Positions 2,400 to 45,900 of a stretch of 64,000 nt of DNA are shown piece after piece; position 1 is the first letter of the stretch, and each line of letters begins with the position of its first letter. Made by a program: the position numbers and the translations under genes. Source of the DNA: Eledone cirrhosa (lineage: Eukaryota); contig OZ024752.1 of NCBI GenBank assembly GCA_964016885.1, positions 9,052,001 to 9,116,000 of the forward strand. Reading direction: 5' to 3'. A model generated the notes under the pieces. It was not told where the DNA came from. It saw only the letters and a program-made list of their open reading frames with translations, and did not search any database.

Positions 2400-3050
2400 A
2401 TAATAATAATGATAATAATAATGAAAATATTGTGTACAATGCTGAGGTGCACTACAACTCATCAAAAGTGCATATATAATACATAGGGTAATATAAAAAC
2501 GTCAGGAAAAAAGAACAGTTCATGAGTCATGATATACACATATGTGCATGTGTATGGAAGGGAGACATCAGGTGTAGTTTTAGTGTATTTCGGAATGTAT
2601 GATGGTTTTAAAGGATGCAGTGTGTCATCAGCTAACAACTGATGCAGGAAGTTTGTTCCATCCTTCAGCAACTCTGAGCATGAAGAAATATTTCCTAAAG
2701 TCATGGGAGCTGTGTTGTTTTCTGACTTTGTAGGCATGTCCACGTGTTAGACACATGGAGATCAAAAAGGTGTTCGGGGTTGTTGTTGGTCGGATGGTTA
2801 ATAACTTTGTGGGTGTTTACCAAGTCCATTGCCAGAGGGAAGCAAAATATTCAGGGTATGGTAGGTGTCTGATGGAGGGTATGCGCTTGGTTGCATGTCT
2901 CTGAACAGTTTCCAGGAGGTCAATGTTCTGAGCAAGATAGGGGTTCCAGACTGATGACGCAAACTCCAAGTGTATTCGTACCATAGATGTATACAGCTTT
3001 AAATAGATGGCTGGAGAGCAGCTAATGAAGGTCTTGCTGATTGATGCCAA
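2400..3050 (-). mobile_element. CR1-type LINE 3' fragment (RT C-terminus)
   Basis: ORF 2817-3050 LKLYTSMVRIHLEFASSVWNPY...LETVQRHATKRIP is a typical CR1/L2 RT tail; (taa)n at ~2400 is a candidate 3' tail. Confidence 0.75.
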
Positions 3051-4539
3051 GTCAATCTTAATAAATTGACTGATTTATCTGTTCACTACTGCTAATCCAC
3101 TGCTGTTTGTACAATTTTTTAGATAATGTCAATTTGAGCTTGAATCATTGGCGTAATGAAATTTGAAAAGATTATAAGCAAATCTTTTTTAAAATACACA
3201 GACAACATTTAACTGTATCGTTGCAACATTAGATCTAATAATGGAGCAACATTTGTGCAGAATTATTGTTTGTGCAATAAGATATTTTTTTTCTCCTATT
3301 GTTGATTTAAATTTCATATGTCGATTATTATAGTTGAATTAATAAAAAAATTAAATATTACATACAAATAGTTTAACATAATAATAAAAAAAATAATCCA
3401 ACACAATAATAATAAAATAATTTAACACAAAACAAACAATATAGACAAATATACAAGTAAATATGATACAACCAATATTATAAGCATGTTATATAAATAA
3501 ATCTTGTAATTTAATATATAATAGTTAATAATTACTTTTACAAAAGCATATTGGCAAATGGACAAGTAACTATTAACTATATCATTCATATAAAAGTAAA
3601 TAAATGTTACAATCAATATTGGAAGGTGCATTATAAAGATATGTAAATAAAAAACGTTTATAATTTATTTTAATATATTTTTAAAATATAAGACTAAAAA
3701 AAAATTTTTTAAAGAAAGTATAAAATACAAAACAAAATATAGTTGACACCACACAATGTGCAGATATATAATTTTAGTCAGCCATATTAATCCAAAGTAT
3801 CAGAGGATTTTTGTGTTGCTAAAAAAGGCACAAAAATAGTGTATGTATTTTCACATAAAAGGCTTTACCTTATATAATTATCTCATATAATATTGAATCT
3901 ACGAGAGTTTTATGTTATTTATTTTGAGAAAAATACCTTACTATCAGTATGAGTGGCTAATTATGGCCAGTTTGAATAGAAAGAGGCGAGAGAATTATGG
4001 TCGGATATGGTCTCTTTAAATGCTAAAGCGCTAGAGAGTTTCTGGTACAAAAATTAATACATTGGAATTTAAAATATAATACAACATTGAAAGTAGTTGA
4101 TATAATGGATAAAAAATAAAAGATTTATAAAATTAGATAATAATAGATAAAAATATGCTTAATTTAAGATAAAATATTGATAAAATTATAATACATAAAA
4201 ATTGATATCATACGGAGAGTATAGTTCAGTGACAAAATGGTCACAAGAATATGGTTGAGTGACATGTGTTTTCAATATTATATCTCAAAAGGCCATAGTA
4301 GCTGCAAACCAATTTCACAATTTCCCGAGGGTAAAAAAACAGCAGACATTCACCATGAAGATAATATATCTCAATGGTGGGACTGGATTCATATTCCAAT
4401 AAATTCAGAAATGCCCTAAAGAAATAGAAACAAAGCAATAGTTAGAGATAACAAGACATCTCTCAACCTCTGTTACTTTTTCTTAGGATCAAGCAAATTT
4501 TTCAAAAAATGCTTGCTGCTGTACATTGGCGGTGAAAGT

Positions 4540-5400
4540 TCAATTCAACTTTTCTAAAAACAACAGGTAGTTGTTAAGCAGTTTCGACGGGAAACCTATA
4601 TACTGCTTGGAAAAGACGGCATCGTTAATAATGTCCCATCTGTCCTGATTGCGGACGATGCTGGTGTAGTGCCCGGAGTCTGCACTAGCCAGTGAATGCA
4701 AGACGGAGCCGATTAGTCGGAATTTTTGGCCGTAAATGCTCTGCTTGTTCGGAGAGAAATTCATCAACTCAGAATCAATTCTGATCATCTGATTGTTTGT
4801 ATATTCGAATCTATTCAAATAAACAACCAAGTAACGCATTGTGTTTGGAAATACATGTACCAAAGTGCTCGGTGTCAATGCCACACAGATCGCATCTCTT
4901 AATGAGCGAAACATCAGTTTTGAGCAAGCTTTTGAATTGCTGCCGACCATTAACAGGCTGCAACGTCAGATCAGACTTGACATCAGTTATATGTGTGCAA
5001 GTGCCACAGCCGTTGATCGATGCACAATAACATTCATCATTGTGCAATCTGGGGCAATTGTGCTCGTGTTTTCTAGTGCAGCTGAGCCAAGTATTTTCCT
5101 CAAAGGTGAATAGTTGTTTAATTTTTTTAGAGAACAATTGATAAATGTGCTTCCAAAAATCGTGCGCACACTGTTGGGTACCATCATTAAACCTGCCGCC
5201 GAGGATATTTCTCAAATTTGCGACCGATTTAGTTCCAGATGACGATATAATATCGCTAATTTCACGAATAGCAACATCATCAGTGGACTGAATGTGTTCA
5301 ACCAACAACACCAGCTGGCGTATAACTTGCATGGTGCTGTTTACAAAGCAAGCATTTCTCTCATTGATCAGCGAAATGTACGGCTTTGCAACCGTTTTCT
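4540..5400 (-). pseudogene. Ubiquitin-specific protease (peptidase C19/USP)-like domain at the Helitron A C-terminus
   Basis: Cys box LINERNACFVNSTMQ, QQCAHDF (QQDAxEF-like), YLNRF, His box SVLHSLASADSGHYTSIV...WDIIND. Confidence 0.8.
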
Positions 5401-5715
5401 CAGTTCTGGCCTTTTTTGGATTCGCCAAGTTGACCATTCCACTGTCAATATTAATAGCAAATTTCCCTTTTTTAGTTGCTTTTTTGGCCTGTCCAATACT
5501 GTTGGGCCTCACGTTACACAATGGAAGCGGTCCCATATTAATGGTCTCTCTCAAATAATTGTATTCTCTCCAAGCACTAGAGTCGCACATGATCAAACTC
5601 GTTGGATCAAGATCAATCAAGTAAACATTGCACAGTTTGCGGGCTCTAGACAAGGCTACATAGGCCATACCGTCTGCAAAAACGCCAGTGCCCAAATCAA
5701 CGACTCCATCGACAC

Positions 5716-44257: not shown

Positions 44258-44700
44258 CTAGCTAATAGGTTTAAAGTAGAAGAAAGAGCTTAATATTCGG
44301 TGGGGGCAAGAGGAAAATATTTCTGACTTTCTGTTTAGTAGAGGGCATTTAGCAAATATAATAGAGTGGGATTCGGCAAGGCATAGGTTACATACTCTAT
44401 TATGAGGAGTATATGGATGGGATTTAGCAACCTGCCGCCAAGTGAGTGTGTAATGTGTTCGTGCATTTTTTAAATTCTGGACGTACGCTGCCAAGGAGGT
44501 GGAGTTCCTCAGTTTATTGTGTCTAAAAGTGCACTGGTGAGAGTTAAACCTGGTCTTAAAGGGGGTGGAGGTTGATCCTATATAGGTTTTAGTGGACGCC
44601 GTAGTTACCACATCACATGCGTAAACTATGTTTCTAATAAGGCAGAAACCATTCAGGGGGCAGCCTGAAGCCCTTCTACAGTTACAATTTCTGGTGATGC
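44258..44700 (-). mobile_element. Penelope GIY-YIG fragment
   Basis: CNCRRASGCPLNGFCL..TYIGSTSTPFKTRFNSH..CNLCLAE; paralogous to 14325-14765. Confidence 0.8.
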
Positions 44701-44974
44701 TATTCTCAGAATGATCACCAGCTTGCTGACCACATGTGTCCCGGCCCCCTCTGTACATATATATATTTAAGTACATATATATATTTAAAAAAAAATTTTT
44801 TTTCCTTCAACGTCTGTCCCCTTGTGTTGCTTCAACTGGCAAGCCAAATCATATGCCGCCTGGACTGCCATTTCTTCCGTAGATGAATCATCTTGTGTTA
44901 GGGACATTGTTTGTAGTGAATAGTGAGAAGGTTGTGTGTCCGTTCCATCATGTCAAAGTCACCAGTTGTAACAG

Positions 44975-45900
44975 ATATATTTCTTTATTAGCCACAGCGG
45001 CGCACAAGAAAAGGGGACAAAAAGACATGCCGGGGATTTTACATACAATCGTGTAAAAATATGAAACAAACAAATATAACAATCGAAATCCCCAATAGGG
45101 AGGAGGCGCCACAAATGGGTTGTTTAATACCCCGATAGGACAACCCTCAACTTCAGGAGCGTGTTGTGCAAGTGCTCCTTTCTTCCTTTTGCTCTCTTCT
45201 TCAACCTACAGGTTTATATACAGAGAAGGGCCATTTGGGCCATTTTTGCCACATTCACCCACCTTTCAGTAAATTTACTGGGGTGCAGTGTCTCTCTCTC
45301 CACTTGAGTCTCCTTCTAAAGTGGTATCTAAAGAAGGCAATGAGAGTTGTTGTCCGGAGCGAAAGGCATCTGTCCTCAGTCCTCTCAACCTCGTCCATCA
45401 TATAACCTCTTTCACCATAGCCACTAGACAGAGGAAAACCGCCTCTTTCGTTTTTGAAAGAAGTTGACGGTTTGATCCTTACTATGGACTCGACAGTCAA
45501 CTGGATTTGTCCCATACGCGACAGCAGTTGTTCCACAGGTCGGTTACGCCCGGGCAGTGTACAATTGCATGCAGCACGGTTTCAATGTCCTGCCCGCATC
45601 TTGGACACGTCCTCTTGGAAGGATCCCTGCCGGAGCGTCCGTGCCTGTAGATCTTGTCACAAACTGGTAGAGGTCCTCAGTAGCACCGCCAGGCCAGGGA
45701 CCTCTGGAAGTTGACCATAGGTCCCGGGCGGAAAGTCCTACCAAACAGACTGGTGAGTTTGTCGTCTTCGACGCCTAGAATCTCTCTGTGCACGTCGTCG
45801 TCCTTGTGACGTACTAACCCTCTATAGAATGTCGAAGAGGAGTTTCCACTGATTGCTGTGCCCGCTTGACAGAGGACTGTGAGCGCCTGAATGCATTCAA
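44975..45900 (-). mobile_element. L1/Tx1-like LINE ORF2 3' end and 3'UTR
   Basis: TTLIAFFRYHFRRRL..ER; 3'UTR homologous to 18950-19250, ending GCTAATAAAGAAA. Confidence 0.65.

Follow-up and report, generated by a model that had tools for sequence, protein, structure and literature searches.

A candidate uni-strand piRNA cluster rich in parvovirus-like elements downstream of a putative NAF1 gene in the octopod Eledone cirrhosa

A 125-kb domain with coding fragments almost all on one strand

We analyzed a 64,000-nucleotide (nt) stretch of the Eledone cirrhosa genome (assembly GCA_964016885.1; contig OZ024752.1, here C12, positions 9,052,001 to 9,116,000 of the forward strand; hereafter the window), the left 46 kb of which are packed with coding fragments of transposable elements (TEs) and parvovirus-like endogenous viral elements (EVEs). 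A sequence-only reading of this DNA had proposed that every orientable TE and viral coding fragment between 2.4 and 45.9 kb lies on the minus strand and that the region is a uni-strand cluster producing PIWI-interacting RNAs (piRNAs) with antiviral content. Strand was scored by tblastn against both strands, using as queries 64 natural open reading frames (ORFs) from the window and its flanks and counting fragments at 45 bits or more; the flanks (200 kb each) and 20 stretches of 10 kb drawn at random from the 3.0-Gb genome served for comparison, and negative coordinates denote positions left of window position 1. A BMP exon situated 188 kb leftward shares 92% identity with a protein of Octopus vulgaris and 89% with Argonauta, in agreement with an octopod host. 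Penelope seeds gave no Pfam reverse transcriptase (RT) matches, and their direction was set via linkage to GIY-YIG frames.

Consistent with the proposal, all 23 fragments detected at 2,400-45,950 were on the minus strand and none on the plus strand, covering 32,937 bp (76%; binomial p = 2e-7), and Pfam analysis of the minus frames returned Helitron (PF14214, PF05970), Parvo_NS1, parvoviral phospholipase A2 (PLA2), hAT, DDE_1/CENP-B, and GIY-YIG matches. When nested, split, and duplicated pieces were merged by hand, about 16 independent elements remained (p about 3e-5). The left edge at 2.4 kb, in contrast, did not hold, as the domain reaches ~79 kb to the left of the window and spans ~125 kb in total (C12, about 8.973-9.098 Mb), the window containing its right-hand 46 kb (1-45,919, minus strand). 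Over the whole domain we counted 54 minus-strand versus 4 plus-strand fragments (63,288 versus 909 bp; p = 3e-12; an ankyrin array described below is excluded), with the bias holding across 14 seed classes and in the left part, which lay outside the sample of the earlier reading (31 minus, 4 plus). Of the four plus-strand matches, one reflects the inverted repeat carried by a Merlin element. Among 111 plus-strand ORFs of at least 50 amino acids (aa) in the gaps of the domain, 37 of them in the window, no TE or host domain was found. Short non-coding repeats are not strictly one-way: a tRNA-headed short interspersed nuclear element (SINE) occurs once on the plus strand and twice on the minus strand.

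The comparison with the genome background that the sequence-only reading had called for set these counts against 12 plus-strand and 8 minus-strand fragments in the random stretches. The right flank was mixed (22 plus, 14 minus), with RTE copies beyond 46 kb on both strands (52,528-53,925, minus; 54,729-56,837, plus), bearing out the end of the bias near 46 kb. Coding TE sequence makes up 51% of the domain versus 1% of the left flank. The hammerhead remnants that had been reported past the right edge were not confirmed: Rfam yielded no family at gathering score within the window and, at 45.9-64 kb, only microsatellite-driven miRNA matches among the 150 of 157 matches listed, and a hammerhead-core pattern was found neither in the domain nor at 46-50 kb.

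The domain lies downstream of and antisense to NAF1

A plus-strand exon with a PF04410 (Gar1/Naf1) domain is located at C12:8,958,627 (-93.4 kb). We take the gene to be NAF1 on the basis of this domain together with a sequence motif; further exons extend from -100.5 to -88.9 kb, and the last exon, which is Pro/Asn-rich, has its stop at -81,199 (81.2 kb left of the window). The one-way domain begins at about -78,800, ~2.5 kb past the stop, and the intervening gap consists partly of miniature inverted-repeat transposable elements (MITEs). Since NAF1 stops to the left of the domain, the block is not intronic but intergenic, downstream of the gene and antisense to it. Among the ORFs scanned, no plus-strand host exon was found inside the domain or over 84 kb rightward. 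Thus, location in an intron of a plus-strand host gene, which the earlier reading had named as an alternative source of the bias, is rejected, as NAF1 ends ahead of the domain and none of the ORFs scanned gave a plus-strand host exon beyond it.

Elements of the domain inside the window

All of the following elements lie on the minus strand; the names Chapaev3, Tx1, Tigger, and R2-like are class labels assigned on the basis of Pfam, Atlas, and structure evidence. The leftmost is a CR1-like RT fragment (2,835-3,041), which agrees with the sequence-only reading in strand and class but is a weak match (tblastn 40 bits, E = 5e-5). It is followed by a Helitron Rep-helicase piece with a UCH domain (4,543-11,240; PF14214, PF05970, PF00443), 6.4 kb of which are 98% identical to a copy on C27, and by Penelope-like pieces with GIY-YIG (14,328-16,405). 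A complete RAG1-like (Chapaev3-type) DNA transposon with terminal inverted repeats (TIRs) and a 3-bp target duplication (16,611-18,754; contig joint 16,610-18,761) sits within a Helitron, whose next piece (18,761-18,913) resumes at 33,837-34,421 past a 14.9-kb nested insertion (joint 18,913-33,837, in all three sequencing runs). This insertion is a Tx1/L1-like element, represented by a 3' part comprising the remaining ORF1 and the 3' end (18,949-20,112; sharing 91-92% identity with a full-length right-flank copy) and by a 5' part of the same element (33,277-33,836).

Between these parts lies a 13-kb viral block. It comprises a lineage-A parvovirus-like element (20,343-23,703; predicted 18-codon exon 1, 23,703-23,650; VP with PLA2, 23,645-22,023; NS1, 22,022-20,343); an 89-bp unit in which re-copied Tx1 target alternates with a short NS1 piece (23,992-24,228); a lineage-B NS1 fragment (24,292-24,880) ending in a 108-nt palindrome (24,773-24,880); a lineage-B element (25,460-28,906; VP in two frames, 28,906-27,096; NS1, 27,103-25,460); a second copy of the Tx1 5' part (29,111-29,486; 97.6% identical to 33,296-33,658); and a second lineage-A element (29,604-32,958; predicted exon 1, 32,958-32,905; VP, 32,900-31,317; NS1 in two frames, 31,311-29,604). 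At 20,108-33,276 the block breaks a single Tx1-like ORF1, and a target of ~30 nt plus the Tx1 5' part is re-copied between the viral units, as if by repeated template switching. A separate lineage-B VP fragment (35,601-36,668) is fused to the 3' half of a hAT transposase (34,393-35,646; depth-58 contig matches without difference). Of the five parvoviral pieces listed in the sequence-only reading, four fall within this one 13-kb block and are not independent.

Further right are a Helitron Rep fragment (36,715-38,013; PF20209), a Tigger/pogo-like transposase in three frames (38,415-39,819; PF03184, PF04218, PF03221), a fragment of a second Helitron type (39,737-40,667), and Penelope-like pieces spanning 40,749-44,806 (40,749-42,969; 43,110-43,250; 44,261-44,806) with a Tx1 piece at 42,918-43,109. 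The 3' end of a Tx1-like ORF2 (45,195-45,919) is the last element of the domain.

Construction and content of the domain

Contig joints show that one Helitron was split twice, by the Chapaev3-type element and by the 14.9-kb Tx1 insertion, the latter itself being split by the viral block; the remaining joins are seamless truncations. Because two DNA transposons, the Chapaev3-type element and a Merlin element, retain TIRs and target site duplications (TSDs), we rejected an origin of the entire block by RNA-templated assembly. The Tigger element and the two hATs yielded no TIR pair, and piggyBac had only short, doubtful ones. Several pieces are young: copies on other contigs match the Helitron at 98% and the Chapaev3 sequence at 95% identity, the hAT is an exact match to a multi-copy contig, and 222 of 283 sampled 28-mers of the Tx1 element lie within 3 mismatches of its full-length copy. 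We infer that the pieces arrived by ordinary insertion, turned over fast, and were filtered by orientation. A 2.07-kb duplication is also present.

The commonest young RTE and the tRNA-headed SINE gave 0 and 3 hits, respectively, in the 125 kb, compared with 39 and 50 in 200 kb of random DNA (counts of hits, not of elements). The same drop recurs in one-way blocks on C18, C25, and C2, and RTE/SINE scarcity could be used as a DNA-only marker for such loci.

Two further structures were noted. A 1,043-bp tandem array lies inside the domain, 28.5-4.2 kb left of the window (L028-L030), each unit carrying an antisense ankyrin-repeat exon that is fused to a Penelope piece and shares 75-86% protein identity with a multi-copy family on C27, C26, C18, and C9; such an array would yield small RNAs against a host gene family. 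In addition, a near-perfect palindrome of 292 nt lies between parvoviral pieces (L025:3895-4186).

Similar blocks elsewhere in the genome

Seven of 20 other parvovirus-bearing loci sampled are likewise one-way blocks (C18, C2:345.4 Mb, three on C25, C27, and C841), with fragment counts inflated by the separate counting of VP and NS pieces. Selected ORFs were scanned for an upstream gene at six of these seven, a procedure that misses short exons. In the C18 block, TEs are on the plus strand and start 2 kb behind a minus-strand FAN1 VRR-NUC exon; one C25 block has minus-strand TEs and lies ~15 kb past the identified plus-strand exons, possibly short of the last one, of a PHD-finger gene. With NAF1 included, all three upstream genes identified are oriented as read-through requires (chance 1 in 8). 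Beside an NS1 piece of the C27 block lies a repetitive ORF of 1,029 aa with DUF6806 and Gp10-like matches (L095:6508-9594).

Parvovirus-like elements carry VP before NS1

The NS1 frames contain PF01057 and, in translation, an HUH-like motif. The VP frames match PF08398 and the Penaeus monodon metallodensovirus capsid (PDB 6wh3, E = 8e-9). The closest NS1 relatives are unnamed Logan proteins (43-60% identity; 16 representatives below 1e-30), and a word-based, insensitive search of viral and metagenome contigs found no free viral relatives.

In parvoviruses with both genes on one strand, the usual order is NS followed by VP. Here the order is reversed: at 20 places NS1 starts no more than 100 nt past VP on the same strand, and 30 rows in total run from VP to NS. 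The nine NS-to-VP rows comprise three gaps between tandem units, five internal joins, and one locus (C23:3.305 Mb) that possibly has the usual order. More specifically, 12 of the 14 VP-start rows (6 distinct sequences) carry a GT(A/G)AGT donor 7-10 nt before the VP start and, 54 nt ahead of this donor, an ATG; the two misses are a decayed duplicate and a lineage-B row. In 14 of the 15 NS-start rows, the aligned Met is preceded by an in-frame acceptor at a distance of 15-18 nt. As donor and acceptor phases agree, NS1 is predicted to be produced by splicing out the VP frame; in lineage A, VP would accordingly lie inside an NS1 intron. Lineage B shares the VP-NS1 order. A palindrome, 317 nt long in dispersed copies, sits upstream of VP and not between the genes, which argues that the order is native, and may be an integration fold-back. 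A word resembling the nonanucleotide of circular viruses between VP and NS1 was not taken as an origin, as the first window copy does not retain it and its position is that expected of a branch point.

The elements resemble Parvoviridae (PMC13426907, PMC5013282) in an NS1 with an HUH-like motif and SF3 helicase, in a VP with N-terminal PLA2, and in a palindrome at the end upstream of VP; they differ in that VP precedes NS1 on the same strand, predicted within an NS1 intron. A limited literature search that included PMC13426907 found no VP-first one-strand layout. Parvovirus-related sequences of molluscs outside known genera have been reported, and a table of them may bear on novelty (PMC5013282). 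The layout is possibly undescribed and, with its conserved splice signals, would represent a gene order new to parvovirus-like viruses.

A probable piRNA cluster fed by NAF1 read-through

On sequence evidence, the 125-kb block is probably a uni-strand piRNA cluster, with read-through from NAF1 the likely driver of a plus-strand precursor. RNA polymerase II would continue beyond the NAF1 poly(A) sites, the long plus-strand RNA would be cleaved to phased primary piRNAs, and these would be antisense to TE and viral mRNAs. Selection would then retain antisense insertions while deletions purge the others, which would give the block its fast turnover. From the original proposal, the cluster itself gains from the antisense bias, the separate nested insertions that all face one way, the intergenic site, the EVE content, the copies of several pieces elsewhere in the genome that could serve as targets, the recurrence of one-way blocks at other loci, and Piwi-domain genes at four loci in the genome (PIWI clade not assigned), whereas the antiviral role is weakly supported.

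Several observations weigh against this reading. The domain holds three genuine short plus-strand pieces, including a 316-bp NS1 piece, and the seeds were mostly cluster-derived, which inflates class diversity relative to the background and leaves the strand call unaffected. AATAAA is not depleted on the plus strand (63 plus versus 59 minus at -4 to 46 kb; 47 versus 59 at -79 to -29 kb), and the stretch from the NAF1 stop to the first element contains four copies. At four of the six other blocks scanned, the search for an upstream gene was negative (selected ORFs; short exons missed). With no hits for the commonest young RTE, that family falls outside the coverage of the block. Finally, only 14 of 833, 66 of 833, and 0 of 855 sampled 28-mers of the three parvovirus-like elements in the window lie within 3 mismatches of the recent family (reference copies on C5, C10, C14, and C998), and the antiviral role is the weakest step.

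Some of these observations would also suit a uni-strand piRNA cluster driven, as in flamenco, by a promoter of its own located in the gap that follows NAF1, the gene being only a neighbor. Such a promoter would produce an identical strand bias, the four AATAAA could terminate the NAF1 mRNA ahead of it, and it would account for the blocks with no upstream gene found. We nevertheless consider it unlikely, as the gap offers just ~2.5 kb, partly MITEs, and contains no CpG-rich patch (a weak test for a promoter), and all three identified upstream genes point the way that read-through needs.

A similarly low probability attaches to a transcribed TE nest unrelated to piRNAs, in which sense insertions were lost for disturbing a long read-through or noncoding RNA, or insertion was biased by transcription, and the output is endo-siRNA or nothing. 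The missing dominant RTE and SINE families fit such a nest, and the 108- and 292-nt palindromes could feed a double-stranded RNA pathway, but neither the packing of the domain with coding TEs nor its EVE load is explained: 4 of the 29 genome-wide PF01057 hits, a lower bound, fall within 13 kb. Moreover, transcription by itself does not produce this bias, since NAF1 introns contain RTE pieces in both orientations; the Helitron found on the minus strand of the final NAF1 intron is compatible with either reading.

Far less probable is that orientation arose during construction, through head-to-tail duplication and template switching by which one retroelement or viral replicase copied pieces in a single direction, with no selected function. 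The viral block at one Tx1 site with its several times re-copied target, the 2.07-kb duplication, and the 1,043-bp array are features of this kind, but cut-and-paste elements with their own TIRs and TSDs share the orientation, 14 seed classes are involved, and the pattern recurs on other chromosomes. Chance or an assembly artifact can be practically dismissed given the domain-wide p = 3e-12 and the few or no differences of contigs in single-copy parts, even though the three runs come from one sample and none of the contigs reaches across the whole stretch. The contigs also match the parvoviral pieces, at low depth and with few or no differences, so these are present in DNA, although the shared sample means that this is not independent support.

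Comparison with known piRNA clusters

A cluster driven by NAF1 read-through would stand nearer to the read-through clusters of mosquitoes and mammals than to flamenco. The sequence-only reading had named flamenco-type and EVE-rich mosquito clusters as showing such an antisense bias; gypsy-family LTR elements dominate flamenco, whereas only 3 of the 58 fragments here are gypsy. Mosquito core piRNA clusters (Qu et al., 10.1101/2022.08.22.504762) are likewise intergenic and unidirectional, start right past the end of an upstream gene, and contain antisense EVEs; here, in contrast, the host is an octopod, the EVEs stem from parvovirus-like viruses with single-stranded DNA (ssDNA), and the TEs are mainly DNA transposons, Helitrons, and Penelope. 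Aedes aegypti EVE cluster 38 is similar in size (143 kb versus 125 kb) and has TEs and EVEs nearly all on one coding strand, but it is 59% gypsy, has a proposed flamenco-like promoter of its own, and has measured piRNAs (PMC7161354). Mammalian piC-DoG clusters share the dense antisense TE fragments that extend for tens of kb directly past a host gene and differ in holding L1 and endogenous retroviruses and in having read-through shown by RNA-seq (PMC11615739). Molluscs possess PIWI genes and DNA-transposon-rich piRNA clusters, and those of Lymnaea and Crassostrea also depart from the genome average in TE content, with young DNA transposons, Gypsy, and R2 enriched; that study includes no cephalopod small RNA, and the word "strand" does not occur in its main text (PMC6128900).

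The candidate cluster belongs to a known type and alone is not surprising. If confirmed, it would widen the range of read-through piRNA clusters with trapped viral DNA beyond mosquitoes and mammals to cephalopods, and beyond RNA viruses to ssDNA viruses. A literature search that was thin on subscription journals found no study of a cephalopod piRNA cluster or of cephalopod parvoviral EVEs. The locus is readily testable, given its unique sequence and a named upstream gene, and the virus layout and a recent invasion add interest beyond the cluster itself.

Antiviral reach and recent germline invasion

The viral pieces in the window share 67-72% (lineage A) and 77-83% (lineage B) identity with their best relatives among the fetched loci. 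Judged from these sequences, the pieces record older strains and would mainly recognize the strains of their origin; their reach against the newest parvovirus copies is doubtful. Such copies, of lineage A, occur outside one-way blocks at C5:102.83 Mb, C10:49.49 Mb, C14:8.50 Mb, and C998:37 kb, where they share 98.5-100% identity and have a single NS1 breakpoint in common, with inverted duplications and a palindrome ahead of VP. Their entry into the germline is very recent.

A tentative scenario, to which we give less than an even chance, would join these observations. An undescribed octopod parvovirus lineage would use a single promoter followed by a short exon 1, VP, and the rest of NS1, with splicing switching between capsid and replicase; the host would store successive strains in antisense orientation downstream of housekeeping genes, in piRNA clusters fed by read-through, as heritable immunity against a DNA virus; and a recent, poorly matched strain would now be entering the germline (copies at least 99% identical, four sequences).

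Minor features to the right of the domain

A FATC-like exon (L031:7357-7542, +71.4 kb, minus strand), 25 kb right of the domain, contains an in-frame stop and is missing from the results of a genome-wide FATC search; for these reasons, it was not used as a right boundary gene. A tRNA search returned none. Tandem repeats at 60,901-62,092 and 63,469-64,000 in the window have unit lengths of 48 bp (derived from the 3' end of an RTE) and 37 bp.

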